Shown here: piece after piece, positions 2,269 to 47,057 of the stretch
Layout of the letters: the number at the start of each line of letters is the position of its first letter
How positions within the stretch are numbered: position 1 is the first letter of the stretch
Notes under the pieces: generated by a model
What the model was told of the DNA's origin: nothing
The model's database searches: none
The model's input: only the letters and a program-made list of their open reading frames with translations
Source: Planctomycetota bacterium
Lineage (GTDB): Bacteria > Planctomycetota > Phycisphaerae > Phycisphaerales > Phycisphaeraceae
Direction of reading: 5' to 3'
Assembly (NCBI GenBank): GCA_039025855.1
Contig: JBCCNL010000001.1
Span: 106,988 to 170,987 of the forward strand
Length of the DNA stretch: 64,000 bases
Made by a program: the position numbers and the translations under genes

Positions 2269-2543
2269 CAGACCGCCAGACTCCTCAACCACCGAACCAC
2301 ACCACCGCATCGGCCCCGATGTACCGCCTTAATCGCGTGTGCCGACCCTCCAACCGCACAAAAGCCGCCCCACCCAGAAGCTGACACACTCACAGACATC
2401 CGACTCTCTCCGCCTCTCTTCGAGGGCCACCGTTCAAGCCCAATGGGGCTGATCCCACTGGGACGCGATGTCCCTCCCGCGGTGCGAGTATCGCACACCG
2501 ATGCGCCACCATCAACAAATGGTCGTCCGCCCACCGCATCGCA

Positions 2544-2573
2544 GGAAGCATGCTTCCCGCTCCATGGCCATGG
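2544..2573. other. Two adjacent perfect palindromes, GGAAGCATGCTTCC (2544..2557) and CCATGGCCATGG (2562..2573), just downstream of the PEP-CTERM gene stop.
   Basis: Seen directly. Could be a hairpin terminator or a protein-binding site. Confidence 0.3.
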
Positions 2574-2589
2574 CCCCCCGCCTACCCGA

Positions 2590-4269: not shown

Positions 4270-4400
4270 AGGGCTCACACATCCCATCGTCACCAGACTC
4301 CGCTCTGTTCCGTCAGGCCGCCGACCGTCTCACTCTATCAAGTCTCACCCCAGCCCCCCTACCCGTCCCCGTGATCGCCCCACCCCTTAGCCCCTAAAGC

Positions 4401-8433: not shown

Positions 8434-8514
8434 CGTCAACCTTCTCCCGACGCCTGTTCAGGATGTCACATCAACCCCTCCCAAGCAACCCGTAATCCCA
8501 AACAAACCGTCACG

Positions 8515-9702: not shown

Positions 9703-9914
9703 CGCTCAGTCTTACGCTCAACTCCCCAAGGTCCGCCGAAGTCTACCCGCGCCCACCGCTAAACCAAGCCGCACCCCTCAGGCCCGCCACCCAGCTGCCC
9801 CAAGCTCACCCGCAAAGTCAAGTCGCCTCTATTGCCTAATCTTCCCAATCGACTATGTTGCGGGCTAGACATCCCACGAAGCGGTTCAACGCTCAGCCGA
9901 GGAGAGAAGGCCCC

Positions 9915-13886: not shown

Positions 13887-14197
13887 GACCCGGTGGGTCC
13901 AAAGCCCACTGCGGAGCGCGTTGGCGGACAACCGCTGGCCCAACCCGCCGCCGAAGTCACACGCGCTAGCGTCCCTGCTCTTATGTTTGGCCACTATCGC
14001 CATAGCATCACATCACATCAACCCGCTGAACACCCGCCAGACCCAACGGCTCTGATCCAGCACCGCGTCGGCCCTACAGGGACCCCATAAAAACACACCA
14101 CCGCTTCTGCACTTGCGCATTAATCCTGCTTGCCTCACTCGGTGCGGCAGCCGACGACCGATGAAGCAATGGTCGACACCACGCCGGTTAAGTCGGG

Positions 14198-29960: not shown

Positions 29961-30266
29961 AGCTCTACTGTTGAAGCGAACCGGAGGCCGCCCCCAGAAT
30001 ATGGCAGAGCAGCGTTTTCCGCCAAATCGCCATGGCCCACCCAGTACAGCACGCAAACGCCCCGCAACCCCCAGCAGGCCCCGCAAAGCCCCAGAAACGC
30101 CTGAATGACCCCTGTTCGTGTCAGACGTGCAACAGAGGGGTCTGCTAGATTGATCCGCGGCAGAGGGGGGGCCTCCCCCCAGCCGATTGACGGATGTTCA
30201 ACCCGTTCCGCGGGTTCTCAGGTCGATCACCGCGTCCCTGCCGCGCCCGCTCCGGAGAGGTGTCCC
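29961..30266. promoter_or_regulatory. Divergent intergenic region between the aryl-polyene operon and the NfeD-flotillin operon. Contains a G7/C6 near-palindrome at about 30163..30181.
   Basis: Non-coding gap of 306 bp. The GGAGAGG SD-like sequence sits just before the ATG at 30267. Confidence 0.3.
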
Positions 30267-30917
30267 ATGGCCGACTTCATCACAGCCTGCACGCAGAGCC
30301 CCACCAACCTCGTGTTGTCCGTGCTCCTGGTGCTCATCATGCTGTACTGGATCGTCGTCATCATCGGGGCCGTCGGCATGGACAGCCTCGACTTCGATTT
30401 CGACTTCGACGGCGATGTCGACCTCGCCCTCGACGGCCACACCAGCCTCTTCGGCGCAGGCATCGGCCTCTCGTTCCTCCGGTTCTTCCACGTCGGCACC
30501 GTGCCGCTGCTCATCCTGGTCTCCGTCTTCGTCCTCATGATGTGGGCCATCGGCGTGATCAGCTACCCGCTCATTGGCAACTGGGGCATCCTCCTCCAAC
30601 TGCTCATGCTGGTCCCCTTCGCGATCGGCGCAATCCTCCTGACCAAAGTCCTCACGCTGCCGCTTCGTGTCTTCTTCGACAAGCTCAAAGCCCAGGAAGC
30701 CGCCGAGCAAAGCGTCAACCTCATCGGCCAACGCTGCGAAGTCGTCTCCCTCACCGCCACCCACCGGCACGGGCAGGTCAAGGTCGCCACCGACGGCTCC
30801 CCCCTGCTGCTTAACGTCGTAACCCCCGACGAATCGATCACCCTGAACAAGGGCGACGAAGCCGTATTGATCTCCCAGGACGCCGACTCAAGCGTCTTCA
30901 CCATCCAGGGGTTTTAA
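30267..30917 (+). CDS. NfeD/YqiJ-like membrane protein (TM helices + C-terminal OB-fold beta-barrel), partner of flotillin.
   Basis: ORF 30105..30917 trimmed to the ATG at 30267 (MADFITACT...), with GGAGAGG upstream. Several TM helices, a 'DFDFDFDGD' acidic loop and a C-terminal 'VKVATDGSPLLLNVV...' OB-like segment. Confidence 0.65.
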   Translation: MADFITACTQSPTNLVLSVLLVLIMLYWIVVIIGAVGMDSLDFDFDFDGDVDLALDGHTSLFGAGIGLSFLRFFHVGTVPLLILVSVFVLMMWAIGVISYPLIGNWGILLQLLMLVPFAIGAILLTKVLTLPLRVFFDKLKAQEAAEQSVNLIGQRCEVVSLTATHRHGQVKVATDGSPLLLNVVTPDESITLNKGDEAVLISQDADSSVFTIQGF

Positions 30918-30941: not shown

Positions 30942-33059
30942 ATGCTGCAACTCCTACCAACCCTCGGCCTCGCCACGCAGACGATGTTCGTCCTCGTTGT
31001 GGCCGGCATCGTCGGCTTCATCCTCGTCGTCGCGATCGTCGCCACCGTCGCCAAGTTCTACGTCAAGGTCGAGCCCGGGACCGCACTGGTCCGCCGCGGC
31101 CAGGGCGGCGGCCAGGTGTCCTTCAACGGCAAGCTGGTCATCCCCATCGCCCACCGCGCCGACATCATGGACATCTCCGTCCGGCGTATCGAGATCTACC
31201 GGCACGGCTCAGAGGGCCTGATCTGTAAAGACAACGTCCGCGCCGACATCAAGGTCGCCTTCTTCGTCCGCGTCAACAACGTCGACAAAGACGTCCTCCA
31301 GGTCGCCGACTCCATCGGCGTCAAGCGTGCGTCCCAGCTCGACGCCCTCGTCGAGCTCTTCGACGCCAAGTTCTCCGAAGCCCTGAAAACCGTCGGTAAG
31401 AAGTTCGACTTCACCGAGCTCTACACCGAACGCGAACGCTTCAAAGACGCCATCCTCGAACACCTCGGCACCGACCTCAACGGCTACGTCCTAGACGACG
31501 CCGCGATCGACTACCTCGAACAGACCGAACTCGGCAAGCTCGACCCCAAGAACATCCTCGACGCCGAGGGCATCAAGAAGATCACCGACCTCACGGCACG
31601 CGAAGCGATCCTTGCCAACGACATCTCCCGCGAGAAAGAAAAGACGATCACCAAGCAGGACGTCGAGGCCCGCGAGGCGATCCTCGAGCTCGAGCGCCAG
31701 CAGGCCGAGGCCGAGGCCAAGCAGGCCCGCGAGATCGCCACCGTCCAGGCCCGCGAGCAGGCCGAGTCCCAGAAAGTCGAAGAGGAGGAGCGGTACAAGT
31801 CGGAGAAGGCCCGCATCGCAACCGAAGAAGAGCTCGGTATCGCCGAAGAAAACAAGCTGCGGCAGATCCTCGTCGCCCAGCGGGCCAAGGAACGCACCGA
31901 CGCGGTCGAGACCGAGCGTGTCCAGCGTGAGCAGGGCCTCGAGATGACCGAACGCGAGCGCGTCGTGGAACTGGCCCGGATCGAGAAGGAGACCGCCCTT
32001 GAGGTCGAACGCAAGAAGATCCAGGACGTCATCCGCGAACGCGTGGTGGTCGAGCGGGCGGTGGTCGAGGAAGAGCAGAAGATCAAGGACACCGAAGAGA
32101 TCATGACTGCCGAGCGGGCCAAGAGCGTGCAGGTCACCACGGCCACGGCACAGGCGGAAGAAGAGAAGATCAAGGAAGTGAAGAAGGCCGAGGCCGCGAA
32201 GCTGGCGAGCCAGTTCGAGGCCGACGAGATCCTGATCGAGGCCGAGGCCAAGCGGGCCGCGGCTGAGAAGGAAGCGCTGGCCAAGATGAAGCTGGCCGAG
32301 GCCCGTCAGGCCGAAGCCGCCGCGGACGGCCTCGCCGAGGCCGAGGTCATGGACGCCAAGGCCGGGGCCGTTGAGAAGTACGGCACCGCCGAGGCCGAGG
32401 TCGTCCAACGCAAGCTCGAAGCCGAGGCCAAGGGCGACTTCGCCAAGGCCGAGGCCATCAAGGCCAAGGGCAGCGCCGAGGCCGACGTCATGCAGGCCAA
32501 GTACGCCGCCGAGGCCGACGGTGTCGCCGGCAAGGCCGAGGCCATGAAGAAGCTCGACGGTGTCGGCAAAGAACACGAAGAGTTCAAGCTCAACCTCGAC
32601 AAACAGCTCCAGGTCGAGCTCAAGCAGATCGACATCCACAAGGACATCGCGGCCGAACAGGCCAAGGTGCTCGGCGAAGCGCTCAAGTCCGCCAACATCG
32701 ACATCGTCGGCGGCGAGTCCGAGTTCTTCGACACCATCATCCACGCGATCACCAAGGGCAAACAGGTCGACCGGCTCGTCGACAACTCCGACCACCTCGC
32801 CCGGCTGTCCGACTCGCTCCTGTCCAGCAACGGCGACGGCACCACCCTCGCCGACCGTATCGGCGACTTCGTCTCCCGCTCCGGTATCGACAGCGACGAC
32901 GTCAAGAACCTCTCGATCGCCGCGCTCATCGGCAAGATGATCGCCGACTCCAGCGACCAGGGCGTCGTCAACGAGCTCAAGAACCTGCTGAGCCTGTCCA
33001 AAGCCGCCGGGTATGCCGACCAGAAACTCGCCAGCCTCGGCGTCAAGGCCCGCGCCTGA
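30942..33059 (+). CDS. Flotillin-like SPFH/band-7 protein with a long EA-rich coiled coil (YqiK-like).
   Basis: N-terminal TM hairpin, then an SPFH domain ('ALVRRGQGGGQVSFNGKLVIPIAHRADIMDISVRRIEI'), then about 400 aa of E/A/K/R coiled-coil repeats. Confidence 0.85.
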   Translation: MLQLLPTLGLATQTMFVLVVAGIVGFILVVAIVATVAKFYVKVEPGTALVRRGQGGGQVSFNGKLVIPIAHRADIMDISVRRIEIYRHGSEGLICKDNVRADIKVAFFVRVNNVDKDVLQVADSIGVKRASQLDALVELFDAKFSEALKTVGKKFDFTELYTERERFKDAILEHLGTDLNGYVLDDAAIDYLEQTELGKLDPKNILDAEGIKKITDLTAREAILANDISREKEKTITKQDVEAREAILELERQQAEAEAKQAREIATVQAREQAESQKVEEEERYKSEKARIATEEELGIAEENKLRQILVAQRAKERTDAVETERVQREQGLEMTERERVVELARIEKETALEVERKKIQDVIRERVVVERAVVEEEQKIKDTEEIMTAERAKSVQVTTATAQAEEEKIKEVKKAEAAKLASQFEADEILIEAEAKRAAAEKEALAKMKLAEARQAEAAADGLAEAEVMDAKAGAVEKYGTAEAEVVQRKLEAEAKGDFAKAEAIKAKGSAEADVMQAKYAAEADGVAGKAEAMKKLDGVGKEHEEFKLNLDKQLQVELKQIDIHKDIAAEQAKVLGEALKSANIDIVGGESEFFDTIIHAITKGKQVDRLVDNSDHLARLSDSLLSSNGDGTTLADRIGDFVSRSGIDSDDVKNLSIAALIGKMIADSSDQGVVNELKNLLSLSKAAGYADQKLASLGVKARA

Positions 33060-33114: not shown

Positions 33115-36100
33115 ATGGCTGAAACTCCAGAAGCCACATCCGAGGCCCTGCCGGAGGACCCCACCCCGTCCCAGGGTCCGAGCCACGACCAGATCGACCA
33201 GGGCGCCTACGAGGTCATCCGACGCCGGCTCGACACGCACGGCCGGGACCTCCGCACCCGCCTCGATCAGCTCAACGCCCGCCGCAAAGAAGTCTTCGGG
33301 TCCATCGACTTCAAGCTGATCGACAACGAGCGGATCACCACGGGCAACAACTGCGTCCCCCGCGACATCGCCGCCGTCGGCGACCGCTTCCTGATGGGCT
33401 TCAACGTCCACTTCGGGCTCAAATCCCACGTCGAGCTCGACGACGTCTTCGCGATCTACCGGTTCGACGGCAGCACCTTCCACGCCGACGACCTTTCGCT
33501 CCTCGATAACGAAGACTTCGCCAAGGACTTCACCGACCTGTTCCGTTTTTACAAGAACGCCAAGTTCGCCAAGTTCTTCCGCGAAGGCCCGCACGTCTAT
33601 ATGAAGTTCCACGTCGGGCGCGACGTCGATGACTTCAAGGCCTTCAAGTGGGCCATCGAGGGCGAGTCCCTCCGCTACATGGGCAACCGCTCCGACCACG
33701 AGGTCCGCTACCCCGAGCAACACGACTTCACCTGGACCCGCGCGACCCGCGAGATGCAGACCCAGGGCGCGTTCCCGCACTACTCGATCGAAGACATCGT
33801 CTTCGTCGAAGCGACAGGTGGCGACTTCACCATCAAGGTCGAAGACAACAGCAACACCGGCGAGGGCATCTACGTCGAGCCGGTCGAGAACGCCGACCAG
33901 TCCCTCGACGACGCCGAGATCCACTACTGCGTCGTCGGGCACATCGTCCTGCTCAAGGTTCGGCCCTATCAGGAACGCAACTTCCGGTACTACATCTTCA
34001 ACGCCAAGCTCCAGCAGGTGCACCGCGAAGACAGCCTCGGCGAGGCCTGCGTCCTCCTCCCCGAGAGCCACGGCCTAGTCTTCTCCCGCGGCTACTACCT
34101 CGCCTCCGGCAAATACCAACGCTTCCCCGGCATCCCCGACGACCTCATCTTCGAACGCAAGATCTCCGCGCCCAACGGCGAAGACTTCGCCTTCCTCTTC
34201 TATCACCGCCGGCAGGGCATCTACGTCATCCTCGCCTACAACCTGATCGACCAGTCGATCGACACCCCGCTGGTCACCAACGGCTACGCATTCTTCGGCG
34301 ACGGCCGCGTCGTGTTCTTCAAGACCCCCGAAGACGCCGAACCCCAGAAACACCACGCGATCCAGGTCTGGCAGACCCCCTTCGTCGGGCCCAACTACGT
34401 CGCGCCGCCCGGCGAGGAGTCCTACCTCTCGAAGATCGGCAACCGCGACATTGTGCGTGGCATGGCCGAGTGCGTTGAGGTCCTCGAACTGCTCTCCCGC
34501 GAAGACCTCTACTCCGACCTCTACGTCGATCTGGTCAAGACCACCTCCGACCTGCTCGACGCCTACTTCTGGCTCGACCACGACGAGTCAGCCAACCTCG
34601 CCGAGCCCCTGGGCGAGATCAAGACCGCCGCCGAAGCCGCGATCGGCGAGTACGAAAAGGTCACCCGGATCCGCCGAAACACCGAGCGGCAGATCGCTGC
34701 CGTGACCCGCGAGGCCGAAGACCTGGTCAACACCAACGCGACCCGGATCTACGACAACATCCTCGTCTACGTCGAAGCCCTCGCGTCGCTCCGAGAAGTC
34801 CGGGGCAAGACCATCGCGCTCAAGGAGCTGCGTTACGCCGACCTCAAGCACATCGACGAACTCGAAGAGCGGGTCAAGGACCAGACCGCGTCACTGTCGC
34901 AGCGCTGCGTGGACTTCCTGCTCGACGAGAAGTCGCTCACGCCCTACCAGGCCGCCGCCGAGGAGCACGACGCAAAGATCGACAGCCTGACCAAGGCGAC
35001 CGACGCGAAGGAGCTCGCCGAGCTGGTCCAGAAGAGCGCCGACGAGCTCGAGATGCTGATCGAGATCGTCGGCAACCTCCGCATCGAAGACACGACCCAC
35101 CGCACCGAGATCGTCGACAACATCTCAGCGATCTTCGGCCAGCTCAACGCCACCCGCACCCGCCTCCGCAACAAGCAGCAGGAGCTCGGCCGGGCCGAGG
35201 GCGTCTCCGAGTTCAACTCCCAGCTCAAGCTGCTGAACCAGTCTGTCGTCAACTACCTCGACCTGTCCGACGACCCGGAGAAGACCGAGCAGTACCTCAC
35301 GAAGGTGATGGTGCAGATCGAAGAGCTCGAGGGCCGGTTCGCCGAGTTCGACGAATTCGTGATCCAGCTCACCGAGAAGCGGGACGAGGTGTACACCGCG
35401 TTCGAGAACCGCAAGCTCCAGCTGGTCGAGAAGCGGAACAAGCGGGCCGACGCACTCGGCCAAGCGGCGGGCCGCATCCTCAGCAGCATCAAGTCCCGGG
35501 TCGACGGGATGGAGCAGATCAACGCGATCAACAGCTACTTCGCCAGCGACCTGATGATCGACAAGGTCCGCGACATCTGCGAACAGCTGGCCGAGCTCGA
35601 CGACACGGTCCGGGTCGACGACATCCAGTCCCGGCTCAAGGCGATCCGCGAGGACGCTGTCCGCCAGCTCAAGGACCGCCAGGACCTCCAGGCCGACGGC
35701 CGAAACACCATCCGCTTCGGGCGACACGTCTTCTCGGTCAACAACCAGGCCGTCGACCTCACCACGATCACCCGCGGCGGCGAGATGAAGCTGCACCTAA
35801 CCGGCACGCAGTTCTTCGAAGCCATCGAAGACCAGCAGCTGCTGGAAACACAAGACGTCTGGTCGCAGGAGGTCGTCTCGGAAGACACCACGGTCTACCG
35901 CGCCGAGTACCTCGCCTACCTCATGCACGAGCAGCTCACACGCGGCGAACCCGCCGAGCTGCAGGCCTTGCTAAAGGAGACCGACGACGACAGCGACCCG
36001 ATCCTCGACGCGGTGCGGTCCTTCATGGGGCCACGTTACAGCGAGGGCTACACCAAGGGCGTCCACGACGCCGACGCCGCCGTCCTCCTGCGGGCCCTGC

Positions 36101-38661
36101 TCGAGATGCACGGCTCTGTCGGCCTGCTCCGCTACCGCAGCGCCGCCCGGGCCATGGCCGGCTACTGGTGGGCCACGCTCGAAGACCGCCGGCTCCGCGA
36201 ACGCCTCACCCATCAGCTCGCCGGCTTCGGCACCGTCGGCGACGTCTTCGCCTCCGCCACCCAGCAACGCGCCTACATCGACGAGCTGTCCCAACACCTC
36301 CACCGCTTCGCCGAAGGCCTCGACCTTTTCGACGCATCGCTCTCATCAGAAGCGGGCGAGTACCTCTTCTATGAGCTGACCGAACCCAAAGACGGGCTCG
36401 TGGTCAGCCCCGAAGCGGCCGAGCTGTTCGACGCCTTCAACAACCACCTCCGCGGCAACCGCTCGCTGAAAAAGTTCCGCGACTCGATCGAAGCCCTCAA
36501 CGACGCCTGGCTCGCCCGCTTCGGCCTCATCCGCGACTGGGCCCACGCCTTCCTCAGCGAGAGCGACGACTTCCCGTCCGACATCTACCGCCACTACGCC
36601 GACGAGTTGGCCCTGCTCCTGCTGCACGGCAAGCCCCCGACCGACCGCATCCACACCGCGAGCGTCCGCCGTGAGCTCGACGGGCTCATCGGCTCACACG
36701 CCGTGATCGATCAGGGCCAATACAGCCTGGACTACAACGAGTTCCTCGCCCGCCTCCGCCACTTTGCCGGCCACACCGTCCCCCGCTTCGAGGCCTACAC
36801 CCACCTGAAACAACAGCTGCTTGATGCTGCCCGCGACGAGATGCGGCTGGACGAGTTCAAGCCCAAGGTCCTCACGTCCTTCGTCCGCAACCAGCTCATC
36901 GACAAGGTCTTCCTCCCACTGATCGGCGACAACCTCGCCAAGCAGATGGGCACCGCCGGGACGGACACCCGCACCGACCGCATGGGCCTGCTCCTGCTCA
37001 TCTCCCCGCCCGGCTACGGCAAGACCACCCTCATGGAGTACATCGCCAACCGCCTCGGCGTCATCTTCATGAAGATCAACGGCCCCGCGATCGGCCACTC
37101 CGTCACCTCCATCGACCCCGCCGAGGCCACCAACGCCGCCGCCCGCGAAGAGCTCGAAAAACTCAACCTCGCCTTCGAGATGGGCGACAACGTCGTGATC
37201 TACGTCGACGACATCCAGCACACCCACCCCGAGTTCCTGCAGAAGTTCATCAGCCTGTGTGACGCCCAGCGGCGCATCGAGGGCGTGTACAAGGGCAAGA
37301 CGCGGACCTACGACTTCCGCGGGCGGAAGGTCGCCGTGGTCATGGCGGGCAACCCGTACACCGAGTCGGGCGAGCGGTTCGCGATCCCCGACATGCTCGC
37401 CAACCGGGCCGACACCTACAACCTCGGCGACATCATCGGCGACCACGCCGAGGCCTTCAAGATGTCGTACCTCGAGAACTGCCTCACCTCAAACCCCGCG
37501 CTCAACGCCCTCGCGTCCCGCAGCCAGAAAGACGTCTATGGCGTGATCAAGATCGCGGAGACCGACAGCCGCGACGGCGTCGAGTTCGAGGGCAACTACG
37601 GCCGGGACGAGCTCGACGAAATGGTCAACGTGATGAAGAAGCTCATCACCGTCCGCGACGTCATCCTGAAGGTCAACCTGCAGTACATCGCCTCGGCCGG
37701 GCAGGAAGACGCCTACCGCACCGAACCCCCCTTCCAACTCCAGGGCTCGTACCGGAACATGAACCGCATCGCCGAGCGGGTGGTCCCCGTGATGAACGAC
37801 GCGGAACTGCAAACGCTCATCTCCTCGAGCTACGAGCAGGACGCGCAGACCCTGACAACCGGTGCCGAGGCCAACCTGCTCAAGCTCCGCGAGATGTTGG
37901 GCTGGATCACCGATGAGGAGGCCGAGCGTTGGGACGACATCAAGCGGACATTTGTCCGCAACAACTCGGTCAACGCGCTAGGCGGTGACGACAAGACGGC
38001 CGCGGTGCTGACGCAGATGGCCGGCCTCAATCAGGGCCTCGGCGACATCGGCAGCGCACTGTCGACCGGCCTCGATGCTTTGAAAGATGCGGATGCATCA
38101 ACGGATGAGGCGGAACCGATCGCGATCGATCTCGCCCCGCTCGCCGAGCAGATGGCGTCGTTCGCCCAGGGGCTCACGGGTATCCGCGAAGCCATGGCGA
38201 CTGTCGCCGAACGCGCCGCGGCGCCAGTCCCACAAGCACCCAAGCCCGTACCGCAGAACGGCCCCGTCGAAGCACGTTTCGACCAGGGCACGCTCGACGC
38301 GATCCAGGCCCTCACCCAGCAGATGGCCGAGCAGGCCCGGGCCGCGCCGCACTCGCCCGCTATCAACGGCGAAGTACCCGTCTCGAACCGCCCCACCGAC
38401 GAACCGGACGACCCCCCGCACGAGATCCGCGTGATCAACAAGATCCCCGCGACGTTCCTCTACGTGATGAAGGAGCAGTTCAAGCTGATGCAGGCCTGGA
38501 TGGAGCCGCTGACCCGGATCACCGCCGACCAGGACGACCAACTCAAGCAGATGCGGGGCTCCATCCAGCAGATCGTCTCGCGGTACGACGACATGATCCA
38601 ACGGCTCGAGAAGAAGCGGGCGTCCGCCGGAGACGAGATCGATGACGACGCCGATGCTTAG
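33115..38661 (+). CDS. 1848-aa protein of unknown function. An AAA_5/MoxR-like ATPase core lies at about residues 1270-1450, preceded by a beta-rich N-terminal region and a long coiled coil.
   Basis: Walker A 'LLLLISPPGYGKTTL', Walker B 'VVIYVDDIQHTHPEFLQKFISL' and sensor-1 'VAVVMAGNPYTE' match the MoxR/AAA_5 pattern. The rest matched no family I recognise. Confidence 0.75.
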   Translation: MAETPEATSEALPEDPTPSQGPSHDQIDQGAYEVIRRRLDTHGRDLRTRLDQLNARRKEVFGSIDFKLIDNERITTGNNCVPRDIAAVGDRFLMGFNVHFGLKSHVELDDVFAIYRFDGSTFHADDLSLLDNEDFAKDFTDLFRFYKNAKFAKFFREGPHVYMKFHVGRDVDDFKAFKWAIEGESLRYMGNRSDHEVRYPEQHDFTWTRATREMQTQGAFPHYSIEDIVFVEATGGDFTIKVEDNSNTGEGIYVEPVENADQSLDDAEIHYCVVGHIVLLKVRPYQERNFRYYIFNAKLQQVHREDSLGEACVLLPESHGLVFSRGYYLASGKYQRFPGIPDDLIFERKISAPNGEDFAFLFYHRRQGIYVILAYNLIDQSIDTPLVTNGYAFFGDGRVVFFKTPEDAEPQKHHAIQVWQTPFVGPNYVAPPGEESYLSKIGNRDIVRGMAECVEVLELLSREDLYSDLYVDLVKTTSDLLDAYFWLDHDESANLAEPLGEIKTAAEAAIGEYEKVTRIRRNTERQIAAVTREAEDLVNTNATRIYDNILVYVEALASLREVRGKTIALKELRYADLKHIDELEERVKDQTASLSQRCVDFLLDEKSLTPYQAAAEEHDAKIDSLTKATDAKELAELVQKSADELEMLIEIVGNLRIEDTTHRTEIVDNISAIFGQLNATRTRLRNKQQELGRAEGVSEFNSQLKLLNQSVVNYLDLSDDPEKTEQYLTKVMVQIEELEGRFAEFDEFVIQLTEKRDEVYTAFENRKLQLVEKRNKRADALGQAAGRILSSIKSRVDGMEQINAINSYFASDLMIDKVRDICEQLAELDDTVRVDDIQSRLKAIREDAVRQLKDRQDLQADGRNTIRFGRHVFSVNNQAVDLTTITRGGEMKLHLTGTQFFEAIEDQQLLETQDVWSQEVVSEDTTVYRAEYLAYLMHEQLTRGEPAELQALLKETDDDSDPILDAVRSFMGPRYSEGYTKGVHDADAAVLLRALLEMHGSVGLLRYRSAARAMAGYWWATLEDRRLRERLTHQLAGFGTVGDVFASATQQRAYIDELSQHLHRFAEGLDLFDASLSSEAGEYLFYELTEPKDGLVVSPEAAELFDAFNNHLRGNRSLKKFRDSIEALNDAWLARFGLIRDWAHAFLSESDDFPSDIYRHYADELALLLLHGKPPTDRIHTASVRRELDGLIGSHAVIDQGQYSLDYNEFLARLRHFAGHTVPRFEAYTHLKQQLLDAARDEMRLDEFKPKVLTSFVRNQLIDKVFLPLIGDNLAKQMGTAGTDTRTDRMGLLLLISPPGYGKTTLMEYIANRLGVIFMKINGPAIGHSVTSIDPAEATNAAAREELEKLNLAFEMGDNVVIYVDDIQHTHPEFLQKFISLCDAQRRIEGVYKGKTRTYDFRGRKVAVVMAGNPYTESGERFAIPDMLANRADTYNLGDIIGDHAEAFKMSYLENCLTSNPALNALASRSQKDVYGVIKIAETDSRDGVEFEGNYGRDELDEMVNVMKKLITVRDVILKVNLQYIASAGQEDAYRTEPPFQLQGSYRNMNRIAERVVPVMNDAELQTLISSSYEQDAQTLTTGAEANLLKLREMLGWITDEEAERWDDIKRTFVRNNSVNALGGDDKTAAVLTQMAGLNQGLGDIGSALSTGLDALKDADASTDEAEPIAIDLAPLAEQMASFAQGLTGIREAMATVAERAAAPVPQAPKPVPQNGPVEARFDQGTLDAIQALTQQMAEQARAAPHSPAINGEVPVSNRPTDEPDDPPHEIRVINKIPATFLYVMKEQFKLMQAWMEPLTRITADQDDQLKQMRGSIQQIVSRYDDMIQRLEKKRASAGDEIDDDADA

Positions 38662-38771: not shown

Positions 38772-39593
38772 ATGTTCAAAGCCATCGGCCGATACTTCCG
38801 TGCACTGGGTTACCTCGTCACCGGCCGTATCGACGCCGCCCGCAGCGCCCTGTCCACCAGCCCCCACGTGGTCAACGCGACCTACGACCAGATCATCGAC
38901 GACAAGAAGAAGTCGATCCAGCAATACAAAGACGCCATCGCCCGGCTGATCGTGCAGCACGAGGGCAAGATGTCCAAGATCAAGGACGAGAGCGACTCGC
39001 TCAACCGCCTCGAACAGATGAAGGAAGGCGCCGCCGCCAAGGCCCGCTCCGTGGTGGCCGAGATGAAGGCCACCGGCGCGACGCTCGAGCAGATCAAGGC
39101 CGGCGAGGACTACCAGAAGTGCATGCTCGCCTACCAGGACTTCTCCTCGAAGATCGAAGAGAAGACCCCGCGGATCGCTGAGCTCGAATCCGATGTGAAG
39201 GAGATGGACGCGACGATCTCGGGGCACAAGCTGCAGCTCACCGAGATGCTGCGGGAGATCGAAAACCTCCGCGGCGAGCAGGCCGAGGCGGTCGCCGAGA
39301 TCATCACCGCCAAGGAGACCGCCGAGCTGAACGACATGCTCTCGGGCATCAGCAAGGACCGCACGTCGCGTGAGCTGGCCGACATGCGTCAGCTCCGCGA
39401 GGAGATGAAGGCCAAGGCCAAGGTCTCCAAGGAGCTGGCCGGCACCGACACGAAGGTGCAGGAGGACGAGTTCGTCCGGTATGCCCAGGAGAGCAAGACC
39501 TCCGATGAGTTCGACGCGTTGATCGGGCTGGCTGAAGAAGCGGACAACGCGACCCCCGACAACCCAGAGCGCGAGCCCCGGCTGCCGGAGTAG
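38772..39593 (+). CDS. PspA/IM30 (Vipp1, ESCRT-III-like) family coiled-coil protein, putative.
   Basis: 273-aa all-helical protein. N-terminal amphipathic 'MFKAIGRYFRAL'. 'KAGEDYQKCMLAYQD' resembles the conserved PspA 'kaGrEDLAReAL' motif. GGAG lies before the ATG. Confidence 0.5.
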   Translation: MFKAIGRYFRALGYLVTGRIDAARSALSTSPHVVNATYDQIIDDKKKSIQQYKDAIARLIVQHEGKMSKIKDESDSLNRLEQMKEGAAAKARSVVAEMKATGATLEQIKAGEDYQKCMLAYQDFSSKIEEKTPRIAELESDVKEMDATISGHKLQLTEMLREIENLRGEQAEAVAEIITAKETAELNDMLSGISKDRTSRELADMRQLREEMKAKAKVSKELAGTDTKVQEDEFVRYAQESKTSDEFDALIGLAEEADNATPDNPEREPRLPE

Positions 39594-39618
39594 ACCACCA
39601 CTGGTCCAACTCCAGCGG

Positions 39619-41436
39619 GTGACGCGTGGTGCCTTTGTCCGGTCGTCGATGAATACTCCCCCGCCACAACACGCCTTCTTCAGCGACCTCGCCCGCATGC
39701 TCAACGCCGGGCAGTCGCGCAGTGTCATGCTGACCGGCGAGGTCCACGACCTGTTCTACCTTGAGGCCGCCGACCGCTACGTCCCGCTGGTCCCCTACCT
39801 CTGCCGGCGATGCTCGGTCGAGGGCGTCGTCCCCCTGGTCTACGAGCTCAACGGCCCGATCCGCTGCACCAACGCCGGCGACCGCAGAACCCTCAAAGAA
39901 GCATGGGTCCGCTGGAAGACCGGCCAATCCCTCGACCAGCTCATCCTCCAATCGCTCAACGACGAGTCGGCCCGCCAGCGCCGCGAGTCCCTCGAAGAAC
40001 AGTTCGACCGACTCACCGCCGAGGCCGCCGGCCGACCCACCGCCGCCCTCGAGATGCTTCGGCAACTCACGCTCTGCTCCCGCGCACAAGCGGCACTCGG
40101 CGGCAAGCGGTTCCGGCTGCTCATCCTGGTCGAGGCCGCCGATATGCTCCTCCCCGCGGCCGACGGCGACATCACTCGGCTCAGCGCCAGCGACCGCCAG
40201 CGCGTCGCCATCTGCCAAGACTGGTTCAGCGATCCCGCCTTCATGGAGGGCGACGACAGCGTGGTACTCCTCGCCGAGTCCCGCAGCGCCATCCACCCCC
40301 GCGTCACCCGCCTGCCCCAGATGCTCACCGTCGAGGTCCCTGCCCCCGACGAGGCCCGGCGTGCCTTCTACATCGAACGCTTCACCCGCGACCGCCCGGT
40401 CAAAATCGACATGGGCACCGACGGCCTCGCCCGCCTCTCCGCCGGGCTTTCGCTGCACGCGTTGCGTCAGCTCCTGGTCGCCTCCGCCCACACCGGCACA
40501 TCCATCACCCACCACGCGGTCATCGACCTCGTCGAGCACCACATCACCAGCGCCCTCGGCGAGGGCGTCGTCGAGTTCAGCAAACCCTCGCACACCCTCG
40601 ACGATGTCGTGGGTCACCGCCGGCTGCGCGCGTTCCTCAACGACGAGCTGATCCCCCGCATCAAGTCGACCGGCGAAGACGCCCTGCCCGGCGCCGCGAT
40701 CGCCGGCCCAATCGGCTCGGGCAAGACCTTCGTCTTCGAGGCCGTCGCGGGCGGGCTCGGCCTCCCCGTCCTCGTGCTCAAGAACATCCGCAGCCAATAC
40801 TTCGGGCAGACCGACGTCATCTTCGAGAAGCTCCGACGCGTCCTCGAAGCGCTCGGCAAGGTCATCCTGTTTGTCGACGAGGCCGACACCCAGTTCGGCG
40901 GCGTCGGCGGCGACGCCCACCCCACCGAACGCCGGCTCACCGGCAAAATCCAGGCTTTGATGAGCGACCCCAAGCTCCGCGGCCGAGTCGTCTGGCTGCT
41001 CATGACCGCACGCATCGAACGCCTCAGCCCCGACATCCGACGCCCCGGCCGAGTGGGCGACCTCATCATCCCCGTGCTCGACCCCGCCCCGGGCAGCGAC
41101 GATCGCCGCGACTTCCTCCGCTGGGTCCTCAAGGGCGTCTTCGACCACCCCGACGACGCACTCCTCAATGAACTCGACCAGCTCACCCCCGGCTACTCCG
41201 CCGCCGCCTTCGCCGCCCTCCGCTCACTGCTCAAAGCCAAGGCCGCCGCGCAAGGCCAGCTCGACGCCGCCACCATCCGTGAGGTCGTCGCCGACGTCAT
41301 CCCCGCCGACATCGGCGACCAACGCGAACGCCAGACCCTCCAGGCCCTGCTCAACTGCACCCGCCGATCACTCCTGCCCGACCCGGACATCGACGAGTCC
41401 ACCCGCGAGGCGTGGCGGCGAGCCCTCGGCCAGTGA
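39619..41436 (+). CDS. Classic-clade AAA ATPase with a ~330-aa N-terminal (degenerate ATPase-like/substrate) domain.
   Basis: Walker A 'GPIGSGKTFV', Walker B 'VILFVDEAD', second region of homology 'RPGRVGDLIIPVLDP'. GTG at 39619; an alternative ATG lies at 39649. Confidence 0.8.
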   Translation: MTRGAFVRSSMNTPPPQHAFFSDLARMLNAGQSRSVMLTGEVHDLFYLEAADRYVPLVPYLCRRCSVEGVVPLVYELNGPIRCTNAGDRRTLKEAWVRWKTGQSLDQLILQSLNDESARQRRESLEEQFDRLTAEAAGRPTAALEMLRQLTLCSRAQAALGGKRFRLLILVEAADMLLPAADGDITRLSASDRQRVAICQDWFSDPAFMEGDDSVVLLAESRSAIHPRVTRLPQMLTVEVPAPDEARRAFYIERFTRDRPVKIDMGTDGLARLSAGLSLHALRQLLVASAHTGTSITHHAVIDLVEHHITSALGEGVVEFSKPSHTLDDVVGHRRLRAFLNDELIPRIKSTGEDALPGAAIAGPIGSGKTFVFEAVAGGLGLPVLVLKNIRSQYFGQTDVIFEKLRRVLEALGKVILFVDEADTQFGGVGGDAHPTERRLTGKIQALMSDPKLRGRVVWLLMTARIERLSPDIRRPGRVGDLIIPVLDPAPGSDDRRDFLRWVLKGVFDHPDDALLNELDQLTPGYSAAAFAALRSLLKAKAAAQGQLDAATIREVVADVIPADIGDQRERQTLQALLNCTRRSLLPDPDIDESTREAWRRALGQ

Positions 41437-42715: not shown

Positions 42716-44794
42716 TCAGAAACTCAACCGCTCCGCGTGCTCTTCATCGCGCACCAACACCTGCCGCCGCTGGTGCGTCGCCATGCGTCCCGCCCGACGC
42801 TGCGCCGCCCGGAACAGCCACCCCAACACCCACCCCGGTAGACGCACCGGCACCGACTTCAACAGCCGCCGACGCACCGGCGTGAACTTCACCAGCAGCG
42901 GATCGTCCAGGCTCGTGATCACCGTCGCCGTCCCCGGCTCGCCCTGCCGTGCGCTGCGACCTTCAAGCTGCCGATCTACCCGGCGTGACTCGTGACGATC
43001 CGTCGCAATCACCGCCAGCCCGCCCCGCTCGACCACGCCCTCAGGCAGCTTGATGTCCGTCCCCCGACCCGCCATGTTCGTCGCCACCGTCACCCGCCCC
43101 AGCTGCCCCGCCTCCGCGACAATCGCCGCCTCCTGCTCGTGCAGGTGCGCGTTTAGCACCGCATGCGGAACGCCCGCGCCCGTCAGCCGAACGCTCAGGC
43201 TCTGGCTGTCATCCACACTCCGCGTGCCCACCAGCACGGGCCGACCCGCAGCGTGCATTTCCCTCGTCAGCTCTGTCACCGCGTCCCACTTGGCATCCAA
43301 CGTCGGCAGCGGCCGAACAGTCTGGGTCTCGCGGCGGCATACCCGGTGCGTCGGGATCCGCACCGTCTGCATCCGATAGGTCCGCCAAAGCTCCGCCCGT
43401 TCTCCCCACGCGGTCCCGGTCATCCCGCTCAGCCGGCGGTACAGCCGGAAGAACCGCTGGAAGCTGATCGCCGCCAGCGTGTGGTTCAGGTCGCTGACCT
43501 CCAGGCCCTCCTTCGACTCGACCGCCTGGTGCAGCCCCGCCTGCCACGTGCGGTCGGGCATCAGCCGGCCCGTGCTCTCGTCCACAATCACCACCTTGCC
43601 ATCCTGCACCACGTACTGGTCGTCGCGCAGATACAGGTACTGCGCCACCAACGCCTGATACACCCGCTCTTCCAGGCGACGCACCGGGCTACGGTCCGCA
43701 TCGCCTCTCGAACCCACCAACCGCTTGATGTGTTGCCGACCCGCCTGCGTCAGGCGCAGGTCCCGGTGCCGCCGATCCAGCCGGAAGTCGCGGTCGGGCT
43801 GCAGCCGCGCCGCCAACGCCGTGGCGTCCCGATACGTGAACTCCCGGGCGTCGCCGCCCGGTGCCGTATCCGCCTTCGGCCCCGAAATAATCAACGGCGT
43901 CGTCGACTCATCAAGCAAGATCGAGTCGGCCTCGTCAATGATCGCCGCCTCACCGCGGAAGAACCGGCCCTGCGACCGCGTCGACTCACCCGTCAGGTTC
44001 CGGGCCAGAACCGAAGCGAGCGGCATCGACGCACGATCGGTCTGCGCCTGTTCCTGCAGCAGGTCACGCAGGTAGTCCGCGGCCGCCTCCTTGTGCGTCG
44101 TGTACGTGATGTCGGCCGCATACGCGCTGCCCCGATCGTGAGGCGGCGTGCCACCCGTGATGTAAGCCACGCGCAGCCCCGCGCCGCCAAACAACGGCTT
44201 GGCCCACTGGGCGTCCCGTTTAGCCAGGTAGTCGTTCACGGTGAAGACGTGACAACCCCGGCCGTGCCACCCGACCAGGCAGGCGGCCAGCGCCGCCACC
44301 AGCGTCTTGCCCTCGCCCGTCGCCATCTCCGTCATCCGGCCATCCAGCAACGCCGCGGCCGCCGCGACCTGCACGCGGTACGCATTGAGCCCCAGGGTCC
44401 GCCGCGCCGCCTCCCGGATCAGCGCGAGCGCTTCAACCCGCTGCTCGACCGTGACCGACCCTCGCCGAAACACCGCACGCTGCTCCGCCAGCCGCCCGCT
44501 CAACGCATCGATGTGCAACTCCCTGCACACCGCCTCCTGCGCGAGCACGCGGTCCGCCAAACGCAGATAACGACGCACCGAACACCGCCCCGCAACCAGG
44601 TGCGACGCGACCCACTCGTACACCGCATCGGCATGCCGACGCGGCTTCGCCGGCTGCCGGTTATGCGATCGGCTCCGCCACGCCTCCCCATCACGCCACA
44701 GCTTCGCCAGCGCCGGCGTCTGCAACTCACCCGGCCGCGCTACGCCCACGGGCTGGTTCGGGTCAGACGGGAACAGCGTGGTCAGGCTCGACAT
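42716..44794 (-). CDS. SecA-like ATPase paralogue (NBD1-PPXD-NBD2-partial HSD; the C-terminal ~200 aa of canonical SecA is absent).
   Basis: 'TEMATGEGKTLVAALA...VNDYLAKRDAQW', 'IIDEADSILLDESTTPLIISG' and 'GMTGTA...ATNMAGRGTDI' align to SecA motor motifs. The ATG at 44794 overlaps the upstream stop by 1 nt (TGATG). Confidence 0.75.
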   Translation of the reverse strand: MSSLTTLFPSDPNQPVGVARPGELQTPALAKLWRDGEAWRSRSHNRQPAKPRRHADAVYEWVASHLVAGRCSVRRYLRLADRVLAQEAVCRELHIDALSGRLAEQRAVFRRGSVTVEQRVEALALIREAARRTLGLNAYRVQVAAAAALLDGRMTEMATGEGKTLVAALAACLVGWHGRGCHVFTVNDYLAKRDAQWAKPLFGGAGLRVAYITGGTPPHDRGSAYAADITYTTHKEAAADYLRDLLQEQAQTDRASMPLASVLARNLTGESTRSQGRFFRGEAAIIDEADSILLDESTTPLIISGPKADTAPGGDAREFTYRDATALAARLQPDRDFRLDRRHRDLRLTQAGRQHIKRLVGSRGDADRSPVRRLEERVYQALVAQYLYLRDDQYVVQDGKVVIVDESTGRLMPDRTWQAGLHQAVESKEGLEVSDLNHTLAAISFQRFFRLYRRLSGMTGTAWGERAELWRTYRMQTVRIPTHRVCRRETQTVRPLPTLDAKWDAVTELTREMHAAGRPVLVGTRSVDDSQSLSVRLTGAGVPHAVLNAHLHEQEAAIVAEAGQLGRVTVATNMAGRGTDIKLPEGVVERGGLAVIATDRHESRRVDRQLEGRSARQGEPGTATVITSLDDPLLVKFTPVRRRLLKSVPVRLPGWVLGWLFRAAQRRAGRMATHQRRQVLVRDEEHAERLSF

Positions 44795-47031
44795 CAGAGA
44801 CTCAGCCCCAGCGGGGACGCGTTCGGATCGCCCGGCACCTGGAACCGCCGCTGCAACACCTGCCGCGCCGAGCGGTACCACTGCTGCAGCAGCGGCTTGT
44901 CCGGCAGGCTGAAACGCACCACCACCGTCTGCCCGTGCTGCATCGCCCAGGCGACCTGCTCCGCATCCGCCGCCTCACCCAGCTCGGGTTCGATCACGAT
45001 CTCGAAGTACGGCTCGGCCGCGGTCGTCCCCTGCGGGTCCGTCGGGTCGGTCGCGATCTGCCCCCCCGCCGCCTCCGACAACGCCGCCGAAGGCAGCCGA
45101 CGCTGACCCGCGGGCATCGCCTGCACCACCCGGCCCGAAAAACCACGGTCGGGCTGATCGGTCGGACGCACCTCCACCCGGTGATCCGCCTGCAACAAAC
45201 GCGGCCCCTCAAACTGATCCGCCGCCACCCGCACCGTCAGCCGACCCGTCTCCGCCAACACGCCAACCGGTTCACCCCGCCGCACATAGTGCCCCTGCAC
45301 ATCGTCATCCAGTGCCGGCGTCCACGTCCCCGCGAATCCCGCCGTCATCACCAGCGACGCCCGCCGCTCCCGCGCCTTCGCCAGAAGGTCCCGTGTCGCC
45401 GCCAGCTGCTCCGCAATCACCTGCCGCTGGATCGGCTCCTCCACCACCGCCCGGCGATACCGCGCTTCCAGCAACGCCTGCCGCGCCTCCAGCTCCAACA
45501 CCTCCGCGTCCAGCCGGGGGTTCGCCGCCGACACCAGCACCCCCCCCGCCGACACCTCCGCATCCGACCCCGCGATCGATTCCACAAACCCCTCCGCCTC
45601 GGCATGCACCGTCACCAGCCGTGCCGGCTCCAACACCCCCAGCGCCCTCGGCCGGTCCGGCACCGGCACCCACCCCAACACCAGCAACGGCCCGCCGATC
45701 ATCAACACCGTCGCCAGCACCGCCCGCCCACGCACCCGCGCCGGCTCCGGCGACGCGCTCAGGTAATGCACCAGCTTGATCGACGGGATCACCAGATACC
45801 CCACCAACGCCAAGATCACAAAGATCGCCCCAATGAAGAACAGCTTGTCCGCCACAAACATGATGATCACCACGCCAAGGAACAGCCGGTACGCCAACGA
45901 CGCCAGCCCGAACACCACAAACCAGAAGCGCTCCTTGAGGTTCCCACCCGCCGCCGGATTGATCAGCTGCCGCACCCCGTAGACATACCGCCGGATTAGG
46001 TACGTCATGTACTGCTGCGCACGCTGATACAGGTTCGGCGTCTCGATGACATCGGACAGGATGTAGTAACCATCAAACTTGATCAGTGGGTTCGCGTTGA
46101 ACAGGATCGTCGACACACCAGCGATGAAGATCAGGTTGTAAGCCAACGCGTGGGCCAGCGTCCCGTCCGCCGTCTGCGACCAGACCACCGCCGCCACCGC
46201 CGCCACCGCGAGCTCGGCATACATCCCCGCCGCCCCCACAAACGCCCGCTGCCATTTGCTCGGAAGCGTCCACGCACTCGTCGCATCGACATACGGCACC
46301 GGCGTCAACACCATCAGCATGATCCCCACCGTGTGCACCTCGCCCTGCCCGTGACGCCGACGCCCGAACCGCTTGCACGCAAACGCATGCCCCAACTCGT
46401 GCAGCAGCTTGATCCCCACCAGACACACGTAAAGCCAAATCAAGTTCTGCGGCGCAAGCACATTCCCCGTCTGCGCCCACAGCTCATCAAACCGCCCCAG
46501 CAACGACCACCCACCCAGCACCAGCAGCCCGGCCCACAGCACCCAGCCCACCGGCCCAAACAACCAGGCCACCGCCGGCAGCCAACGATTCAAAAACCGG
46601 TCCGGGTCCCAGATCGGCACCCGCGCAAACAACAGGTTCTTGAGATACCCACCCACCTCCTTGCGGATCCGCTTCTGCCGCCGTTCAAACATCCGCCCCG
46701 CGTCCGGTGACAGCTCGTGGTCCAACAAGTTGCTCGTGTGCAGCTGCCCGATCAGCCGCAGCGCCTCGCCCTGTGTTGGCGCCTCGTCCTCGAGCTGTTC
46801 CTGTACCGCTTCCCACGCGTCCTGGATGCTCCGACGCCCGTCGAGCAGCCCGACAAACCGATACCCCGCTGCGCTCAGCCGGAAGTGCTGGTTGTTCGAC
46901 GGGTCCATCACCACGTACCACTGCCTACCGCGATATTGCTGACGACCGCACTGCACCGTCGAGCGCAGCCTCGGCTTCGTCTCCGCAATGCGGTGCCAGG
47001 AGTCGTCGTAGGTCGGCCGTTCAAACGCCAA
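44794..47031 (-). CDS. Fusion of a site-2-protease (peptidase M50) transmembrane domain with a HlyD-type periplasmic adaptor (membrane-fusion protein).
   Basis: 'LLHELGHAFACKRFG' (HExxH) and 'NANPLIKFDGYYIL' (the S2P LDG motif) lie in TM segments. The C-terminal half has biotinyl/lipoyl-like and beta-barrel MFP segments. Start is TTG at 47031 or downstream. Confidence 0.7.
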   Translation of the reverse strand: MAFERPTYDDSWHRIAETKPRLRSTVQCGRQQYRGRQWYVVMDPSNNQHFRLSAAGYRFVGLLDGRRSIQDAWEAVQEQLEDEAPTQGEALRLIGQLHTSNLLDHELSPDAGRMFERRQKRIRKEVGGYLKNLLFARVPIWDPDRFLNRWLPAVAWLFGPVGWVLWAGLLVLGGWSLLGRFDELWAQTGNVLAPQNLIWLYVCLVGIKLLHELGHAFACKRFGRRRHGQGEVHTVGIMLMVLTPVPYVDATSAWTLPSKWQRAFVGAAGMYAELAVAAVAAVVWSQTADGTLAHALAYNLIFIAGVSTILFNANPLIKFDGYYILSDVIETPNLYQRAQQYMTYLIRRYVYGVRQLINPAAGGNLKERFWFVVFGLASLAYRLFLGVVIIMFVADKLFFIGAIFVILALVGYLVIPSIKLVHYLSASPEPARVRGRAVLATVLMIGGPLLVLGWVPVPDRPRALGVLEPARLVTVHAEAEGFVESIAGSDAEVSAGGVLVSAANPRLDAEVLELEARQALLEARYRRAVVEEPIQRQVIAEQLAATRDLLAKARERRASLVMTAGFAGTWTPALDDDVQGHYVRRGEPVGVLAETGRLTVRVAADQFEGPRLLQADHRVEVRPTDQPDRGFSGRVVQAMPAGQRRLPSAALSEAAGGQIATDPTDPQGTTAAEPYFEIVIEPELGEAADAEQVAWAMQHGQTVVVRFSLPDKPLLQQWYRSARQVLQRRFQVPGDPNASPLGLSL

Positions 47032-47057
47032 TGCAGAACCTCAATCGTCAATCGGCG

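Follow-up and report, generated by a model that had tools for sequence, protein, structure and literature searches.

Within a 64,000-nucleotide stretch of DNA from a Planctomycetota bacterium of the Phycisphaeraceae (contig JBCCNL010000001.1 of assembly GCA_039025855.1, positions 106,988 to 170,987 of the forward strand; this whole stretch is called the window, and coordinates below count from its first letter), two neighbouring plus-strand genes form a conserved gene module that is found in the Planctomycetes-Verrucomicrobia-Chlamydiae (PVC) superphylum plus a few other lineages. The first gene, which we call PspAL (38772..39593, 273 aa), is supported by sequence profiles and a fold model as encoding a divergent member of the PspA/IM30 family, in the ESCRT-III superfamily; the second (39619..41436) encodes a tandem (type II) classical AAA ATPase. 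In the window, this module is appended to an operon for NfeD/YqiJ-like, flotillin-like and DUF3686 AAA+ proteins. The original prediction, made from the letters of the DNA, had described both open reading frames (ORFs) correctly and read them as a bacterial ESCRT-III/Vps4-like pair; it overlooked that the two genes close an operon of five. The novelty that it saw in a bacterial PspA with a dedicated Vps4-like partner is also lost, given that Ravi et al. (2024; mSystems, PMC11237479, section 18 and Text S2.2; preprint 2020) had described computationally a bacterial PspA beside an 'inactive-classical-AAA + classical-AAA' protein, with AEY64321.1/AEY64320.1 and OGG56892.1 as published examples, and had proposed a role 'comparable to Snf7 and VPS4'. 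The window pair is a further member of this computationally predicted dyad, in a relocated operon, and the idea is already in print.

The assignment of PspAL draws on its relatives. Scanned alone, the protein matches the Pfam family PspA_IM30 (PF04012) at 16.3 bits, under the 33.9 cutoff; the same family is matched by 8 of 22 close relatives and 11 of 67 diverse ones (best E = 3.4e-7), and it is the sole Pfam family that recurs among them. The PspAL family is large and well separated, with 978 clusters at 90% identity and 591 representatives at 50% identity (E ≤ 1e-3). Because a profile of 67 diverse representatives (mean identity 35%) puts Vipp1/PspA chains first in the PDB (E = 4.8e-8), we consider PspAL a divergent PspA/IM30 protein, which bears out the PspA-like character first proposed for it. 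The match is colinear in two segments, profile positions 39-96 falling on Vipp1 30-87 and positions 133-247 on 99-210, and it takes in the ELAG(T/A)D stretch. A profile of the close relatives finds Vipp1 weakly in the PDB (E = 0.037), phmmer of PspAL itself against the PDB gave no match, and hhalign of either profile against E. coli PspA was not significant, a single-sequence template being too weak. The AlphaFold2 (AF2) model (predicted local distance difference test, pLDDT, 79) is all-helical, in agreement with the composition noted at the outset: a helix alpha-0 at residues 3-27, a hairpin of 31-100 against 112-241 and a short C-terminal helix at 246-257. Foldseek with this model places Vipp1 at ranks 2, 3, 9, 10 and 11, in full-length alignments with weak E-values. 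The AGEDxxxxxLA motif, put forward as PspA evidence, does not serve as such: it lies at residues 110-120, on the tip of the predicted hairpin, has no invariant residues besides Y114 and A120, and is not the PspA 'AEDP' junction. An identity as TelA, XpaC or an SMC protein was considered and rejected, since SMC models gave sub-threshold coiled-coil matches only and PspA was the sole recurrent family. PspAL sits in a PVC-centred PspA subfamily, distinct from the flotillin-operon PspA of Ravi et al. (2024). Its ATG start has an AGGAG 8-12 nt upstream and the N-terminus agrees with those of its homologues.

Both ends of PspAL carry conserved elements. Residues 1-27 (MFKAIGRYFRALGYLVTGRIDAARSAL, 38772..38852, plus strand) make up alpha-0, which is amphipathic, basic and aromatic and is modelled as two helices, at 3-16 and 19-27. 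The amphipathic N-terminal helix of the original prediction holds up well: residues 1-18 have the highest 18-residue hydrophobic moment of the protein (0.59, with a mean of 0.26), and R7, R10, Y14, T17 and G18 are conserved over the 67 diverse relatives. We presume that alpha-0 is a membrane anchor. At the other end (39507..39590, plus strand), an EFDxLIGLA helix (residues 246-254), a variable acidic linker and a terminal (K/R)LPE form a tail whose motif is invariant in the 22 close relatives; among the 67 diverse ones, E246 is kept in 53/67, F247 in 57/67, L250 in 48/67, G252 in 48/67, P272 in 54/67 and E273 in 45/66. The linker and terminus have low pLDDT in the model. This conserved tail pattern is a feature not noted elsewhere, and we take it as a candidate site of recognition by the ATPase.

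The ATPase gene reads as 605 aa from a GTG at 39619 and as 595 aa from an ATG at 39649. The ATG is the likelier start because a 100% identical NCBI homologue (P0121) is 595 aa long and homologue N-termini align from about residue 11; the spacer to PspAL would therefore be 55 bp and not 25 bp. The N-terminal 330 residues, in which an MIT-like or substrate-binding domain was to be looked for, instead hold a degenerate AAA-fold ring domain (D1, residues ~18-330, 39670..40608, plus strand), as seen in the alignment (A2), the AF2 model and Foldseek. D1 has no P-loop: GxxxxGK[ST] occurs nowhere in it in the alignment, EAAD stands in place of Walker B, and E172 and D175 of this 'VEAAD' are invariant. 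A second module (D2, 40609..41433, plus strand), active as far as its motifs tell, follows, with Walker A GPIGSGKT (40705-40728), pore loop 1 SQYFG (40792-40806; SQ[Y/W]FG in the family), Walker B VDEAD (40873-40887) and the arginines RRPGR of the second region of homology (SRH; 41038-41052), all on the plus strand, at coordinates checked by translation, and all invariant in 26 homologues. Pfam places its AAA domain (PF00004) at residues 361-480 (E = 1.3e-14). In the AF2 model (pLDDT 86) the D1 region folds as an alpha/beta domain, and Foldseek aligns about 600-650 columns to D1 and D2 of Rix7/NVL, p97/Cdc48 and Drg1/AFG2 with E of about 1e-17. The chain begins about 18 residues ahead of D1, and the Pfam scan of the ATPase gave no CDC48_N or CDC48_2 match (the N-terminal double-psi-barrel/beta-clam domain), no MIT domain and no Vps4_C (PF09336). 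Motifs and model together describe a type II classical AAA protein whose D2 motor is intact, whose D1 is dead and which has no adaptor domain at its N-terminus, and the protein looks like a working unfoldase, as predicted from these motifs and this fold.

The Vps4-like label first given to the ATPase does not survive this comparison. The SRH stretch on which it relied (RRPGRVGDLIIPVLDP, 41038-41085, plus strand) is present as quoted; the SRH, taken there as the mark of a 'Vps4/katanin/FtsH clade', defines the whole classical clade. Its RPGR form is the Cdc48/FtsH/proteasomal form, that of Vps4, katanin and spastin being RRRFE/KR. NCBIfam models score the ATPase at 61.9 bits for CDC48, about 25 for PAN, 18.9 for CdvC and 17.9 for FtsH, and its best sequence matches in the PDB are VAT, AFG2/SPATA5 and Cdc48/p97; the top 60 PDB matches hold VAT, AFG2, Cdc48/p97, NSF and NVL/Rix7, with Vps4, spastin and katanin absent. 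Membership in the Vps4/CdvC group was rejected on these grounds, namely the missing MIT and Vps4_C, a tandem rather than single-ring build, a CDC48 score above that of CdvC and an RPGR-type SRH, and an identity as FtsH, ClpX or Lon was ruled out by the NCBIfam scores and PDB matches. The best sequence and structure matches thus extend over both rings of the Cdc48/p97/VAT, Rix7/NVL and Drg1/AFG2 type, with agreeing pore-loop and SRH motifs; the window ATPase differs from proteins of that type by the absence of the N-terminal double-psi-barrel and of any nucleotide-binding motif in D1. By its sequence it would be, at best, a functional analogue of Vps4, Cdc48-like and not a strict homologue.

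The genes of the two proteins travel together. A genome scan anchored on PspAL only, over species-representative genomes, gave 210 loci, of which the best 80 were kept and searched by tblastn, with queries taken from the proteins of the window and from the neighbours of PspAL in one of these loci (L031). The ATPase lies downstream on the same strand in 43 of the 61 loci (70%) that have at least 6 kb of downstream sequence, 7-1061 bp away in 22 of the linked loci and 2.8-6.0 kb away, behind an ATP-binding cassette (ABC) transporter cassette of about 3 kb, in the other 21. The linked genomes belong to Planctomycetota, Verrucomicrobiota and Hydrogenedentota, with single metagenome-assembled genomes (MAGs) labelled Nitrospiraceae and Acidobacteriota. 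Seen from the ATPase, in a metagenome scan that yielded 19 loci with at least 5 kb on either side, PspAL is the commonest neighbour (13/19), followed among others by a transmembrane (TM) coiled-coil protein (10) and a PBP-OmpA protein (8). The pairing is not due to chance, because order and strand recur in dozens of species; the linkage is strong and phylogenetically wide, and it is not obligatory. The co-occurrence beyond this genome on which the original prediction depended is therefore real, just as the ATPase is no FtsH, ClpX or Lon and the 273-aa protein no TelA or XpaC. The genes are same-strand neighbours, and the intergenic gap goes down to 7-25 bp in several species; the spacer in the window, from whose supposed 25 bp an operon had been suggested, is probably 55 bp.

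Three arrangements recur. The first, that of the window, runs NfeD, flotillin, DUF3686, PspAL, ATPase and is found in 19 loci (L004-L022) labelled Phycisphaeraceae, Phycisphaerae, Phycisphaerales or plain Planctomycetota, with PspAL at least 69% identical; the ATPase is present in 17 of them. In the second, genes for a PBP+OmpA protein, a 248-aa TM coiled-coil protein, PspAL, an NMT1-type binding protein, a permease, an ABC ATPase and the tandem-AAA ATPase follow one another, in Phycisphaerae, Tepidisphaeraceae, Gemmataceae, Planctomycetaceae and many Verrucomicrobiota (Limisphaerales, Pedosphaera). In the third, PspAL and the ATPase stand as a bare dyad, which in some loci the TM coiled-coil gene precedes; this arrangement occurs in Hydrogenedentota, Thermoguttaceae, Planctomycetaceae and MAGs labelled Nitrospiraceae, Acidobacteriota and Verrucomicrobiota. 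These arrangements agree with the published dyad, whose description (a dead N-terminal and a live C-terminal AAA domain, beside a PspA-family gene) matches the window pair and whose longer operons add an ABC ATPase, a permease, a PBPB-OmpA protein and a membrane-anchored Snf7-like protein (Ravi et al., 2024, PMC11237479). The same set of PBP+OmpA, TM coiled-coil, NMT1-type binding protein, permease and ABC ATPase genes occurs in loci that hold relatives of the window pair (L025, L031, L035, L038 and others), whereas ABC, PBP-OmpA and TM-coiled-coil genes were not found in the 64-kb window, where the dyad follows NfeD-flotillin-DUF3686. The window holds a reduced, relocated version of the extended operon, because the extra genes sit in relatives of both families and not in the window.

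Two side observations concern these loci. The protein of about 248 aa, with N-terminal TM segments and a coiled coil, has its gene just ahead of PspAL in L031 (9207-9953) and at the matching position of about 45 other loci, and is found there in most loci outside the window's clade; Ravi et al. (2024, PMC11237479) termed this type a TM-anchored divergent Snf7, a likeness to Snf7/PspA that hhalign and phmmer neither confirmed nor refuted. In addition, a contig labelled 'Candidatus Bathyarchaeia archaeon' (L070, DATKVG010000055.1) carries the full PVC-type operon of PBP-OmpA, TM coiled-coil, PspAL, ABC cassette and ATPase, and is probably a mis-binned bacterial contig.

In the window, which has a G+C content of about 66% and whose proteins match Planctomycetota/Phycisphaeraceae MAGs at 99-100% identity (P0001, P0121), the pair closes a run of five plus-strand genes arranged head to tail, NfeD/YqiJ, flotillin-like SPFH, DUF3686 AAA+, PspAL and ATPase, with successive gaps of 24, 55, 110 and 25-55 bp. 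The first gene (30105..30917) encodes an NfeD/YqiJ-like multi-TM membrane protein with a weak match to YqiJ_N (PF21001, 19.7 bits with a gathering score of 23); homologues align from about residue 55, where an ATG at 30267 was confirmed, and this ATG is the probable true start. Loci L001 and L005-L022 keep this gene ahead of the one for flotillin. The second (30942..33059) encodes a flotillin-like protein of 705 aa, with a TM segment, an SPFH/Band-7 domain and a long coiled coil, which is 66-82% identical across Phycisphaeraceae loci. Its N-terminal 286 aa, scanned alone, match Band_7 (PF01145) at 34.3 bits (gathering score 23.6), and the Pfam scan of the whole 705-aa protein gave no match, which illustrates how a long coiled coil can mask a domain match. 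The third (33115..38661) encodes a giant AAA+ protein of 1848 aa with an N-terminal DUF3686 domain (PF12458, E = 3e-179), a DUF7902 coiled coil (PF25472, E = 1e-24) and one AAA module at residues ~1290-1416 (PF00004, E = 2e-7), and lies directly upstream of PspAL in all 19 Phycisphaeraceae-type loci. The Pfam title of the DUF3686 family is 'ATPase involved in DNA repair'; the operon setting with NfeD and flotillin in these 19 loci points to a membrane role rather than to DNA repair, and our literature search on DUF3686 found no paper. The operon is flanked by unrelated or opposite-strand genes, for an AMP-binding enzyme (minus), an enolase-superfamily enzyme and a SecA paralogue (minus). An Rfam scan of 28-43 kb of the window found no RNA family, the promoter scan of the region found no sigma-70-like promoter and terminator-like sites at background level, and PADLOC found no defence system, its matches being weak generic P-loop (IetA, 29 bits) and coiled-coil ones.

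The first three genes fit a second published context of PspA, the flotillin operon (as in E. coli yqiJK) of YqiJ/YuaF, Band-7/flotillin and a beta-propeller/coiled-coil AAA+ protein (Ravi et al., 2024, PMC11237479), the 1848-aa protein corresponding to the 'beta-propeller + coiled-coil + AAA-ATPase' of that operon. The window operon differs in that no CesT/Tir gene is seen in the window and in that its PspAL is of another subfamily and brings its own tandem AAA ATPase. The window's arrangement looks like a merger of a DUF3686-PspAL locus with a locus of PspAL, ABC cassette and ATPase.

What could the two proteins do together? We hypothesize, as a model that has in our view an even chance of being right, that the ATPase extracts PspAL subunits by ATP-driven threading via the conserved C-terminal tail. 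PspAL would bind the inner face of the cytoplasmic membrane via alpha-0 and then polymerise in the manner of PspA/Vipp1; a hexamer of the ATPase would recognise the exposed tail (the EFDxLIGLA helix and the terminal KLPE), which would be threaded through the aromatic pore loops of D2 so that subunits are pulled from the polymer and turnover or remodelling of the PspAL coat would become ATP-dependent. The pair would then be a functional analogue of Vps4/ESCRT-III, derived independently from a Cdc48-like ancestor. Several features support this model: (i), the PspAL tail is conserved while the linker before the terminus varies; (ii), the D2 motor motifs are invariant, D1 is degenerate and the predicted fold is that of substrate-threading type II ATPases; (iii), the two genes are linked in several lineages, and where the ABC cassette is missing, as it also is in the DUF3686-type loci, they persist as a dyad. 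Ravi et al. (2024) had come to this inference on the basis of domain architectures. In this organism, the module may act at SPFH membrane microdomains, in envelope maintenance or repair, which is suggested because the flotillin, NfeD and DUF3686 genes share its operon; a passage in Makarova et al. (2024, PMC10936438) cites the localisation of Bacillus PspA as requiring an SPFH protein.

Comparison with CdvB/CdvC and other ESCRT-III/Vps4 systems of archaea and eukaryotes is instructive in both directions. Here too, an ESCRT-III-superfamily gene lies directly upstream of the gene for a classical-clade AAA protein with an aromatic pore loop, and PspAL has, behind a flexible linker, a conserved C-terminal helix at the position of the MIT-interacting motif (MIM). 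Unlike Vps4, the window ATPase has no MIT domain, Vps4 beta-domain or Vps4_C, is tandem and has an RPGR-type SRH, and the PspAL tail does not fit the consensus of MIM1 or MIM2. The resemblance is one of analogy, not orthology.

Cdc48-type type II AAA ATPases usually act via adaptors, and the window ATPase, having no substrate-binding N domain of its own, would therefore need one. PspAL could be that adaptor, or a regulator, recruiting the ATPase to stressed membrane or inhibiting it while other proteins are the substrates; we regard this as rather doubtful and still as a serious alternative. With the same reserve, such substrates might be membrane proteins that are damaged, assemblies of flotillin and NfeD, or the TM coiled-coil protein or ABC transporter of the relatives, and other conserved neighbours (TM coiled-coil, PBP-OmpA, ABC cassette) could indeed provide them. 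This is not without precedent: E. coli PspA binds PspF, an AAA+ protein, and inhibits it (PMC3128695, PMC7619361); in Proteobacteria, as here, there is genetic coupling between a PspA-family protein and an AAA+ protein. PspF, however, is a sigma-54 enhancer-binding protein with a helix-turn-helix domain and is divergently transcribed, whereas the window ATPase is of the classical clade, co-directional and downstream, with no DNA-binding or sigma-54 module, so the regulatory logic of PspF is not directly transferable. The bare dyad, moreover, occurs in many lineages without other candidate substrates nearby, and the conserved free C-terminus of PspAL seems more like a threading handle than an adaptor surface.

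The extraction model also has to be weighed with a number of observations that count against it. The PspAL tail (EFDxLIGLA, KLPE) fits neither the MIM1 consensus, (D/E)xxLxxRLxxL(K/R), nor that of MIM2, and the ATPase lacks the MIT domain. In 18 of the 61 PspAL loci (~30%) there is no ATPase within 10 kb; 6 of the 19 ATPase loci (~30%) have neither PspAL nor its usual neighbours, for example L087 with a leucine-rich-repeat protein upstream, and an ABC ATPase is almost as common near the ATPase as PspAL is (11 and 13 of 19). Two Phycisphaeraceae loci (L016 and L017) have a DUF3686-linked PspAL with no adjacent ATPase. Finally, our literature search found no experimental paper on either family, with interaction, polymerisation or ATPase activity reported for no member of either.

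The incomplete linkage could mean that the genes are co-regulated for envelope stress or solute transport with no physical coupling, PspAL stabilising membranes alone, which canonical PspA is able to do, and the ATPase being a general quality-control unfoldase of the PVC bacteria. Such a reading, which we think unlikely, would account for PspAL without the ATPase, for the ATPase standing alone in L087 and in the six loci as a whole, and for its high conservation (55-85% identity across Planctomycetota), and it accords with reviews that hold PspA/Vipp1 to remodel membranes without a dedicated ATPase (PMC7619361). It is harder to reconcile with a strand and order kept over at least 5 phyla while every other flanking gene changes, with the joint relocation of the pair into an unrelated flotillin operon in Phycisphaeraceae (17/19 loci) and with the short gaps between the genes in several species.

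The two loci without adjacent ATPase bear on a further alternative, namely that in the window PspAL works with the DUF3686 AAA+ protein encoded upstream and with flotillin and NfeD, and that the tandem-AAA gene is a passenger from an ancestral operon. L016 and L017 retain DUF3686-PspAL where the ATPase is lost, DUF3686 is upstream in 19/19 loci of the clade against 17/19 for the tandem ATPase downstream, and PspA is listed in flotillin plus beta-propeller-AAA+ operons by Ravi et al. (2024, PMC11237479). The L016 and L017 genomes (complete chromosomes OY763327.1 and OY771506.1), however, still encode the tandem ATPase beside a second PspAL paralogue, in an ABC-cassette operon (L041, L031), and the DUF3686 linkage is limited to one family-level clade whereas the tandem-AAA linkage spans phyla; we give this alternative little credence.

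Elsewhere in the window, three consecutive minus-strand genes (42716-49073) encode an HlyD-family protein (671 aa, 47058-49073), a PqqD + Peptidase_M50-like membrane protein (745 aa, 44794-47031) and a short SecA paralogue (721 aa, 42716-44881), the last two genes overlapping by 88 bp; they may be a dedicated cluster for the processing and export of a peptide or protein. Positions 2001-14000 have an extreme strand composition, with GC skew to -0.49 and AT skew to +0.41. A beta-helix/NosD/PKD protein (2590-4293, minus) and a 1343-aa cadherin/Calx-beta/PA14/GSDH surface protein (9855-13886, plus) are encoded there, and the Pfam scan of the long ORFs examined between 4401 and 9414 gave no match.

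It is an open question whether any energy source drives bacterial ESCRT-III-like polymers. A Vps4-like ATPase appears to be absent in bacteria according to a 2025 review (PMC7619361), Liu et al. (2021, PMC8281802) posed the existence of an equivalent ATPase as a question, and Makarova et al. (2024, PMC10936438) hold ESCRT systems to be limited to archaea and eukaryotes. The module offers here a concrete, testable protein pair, with tight synteny across phyla, intact motor motifs and a conserved tail on the ESCRT-III-like partner, and its ATPase is a candidate for the missing ATPase that would power bacterial ESCRT-III. The Planctomycetota have unusually elaborate membrane invaginations and, to our knowledge, lack FtsZ. 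A far-reaching and highly improbable possibility is that PspAL and the tandem AAA protein are a true ATP-driven ESCRT-III-like remodelling or scission machine, of a bacterial origin independent of Vps4, that in Planctomycetota could have a part in cell division or endomembrane dynamics, beyond stress repair, and in this organism would work with flotillin microdomains and the DUF3686 AAA+ protein. If the ATPase does not disassemble PspAL polymers, the operon is an ordinary envelope-stress operon. If it does, ATP-driven remodelling by ESCRT-III would have arisen on two occasions from Cdc48-like stock, and the flotillin/NfeD link would tie SPFH microdomains to an ATP-driven remodelling machinery.

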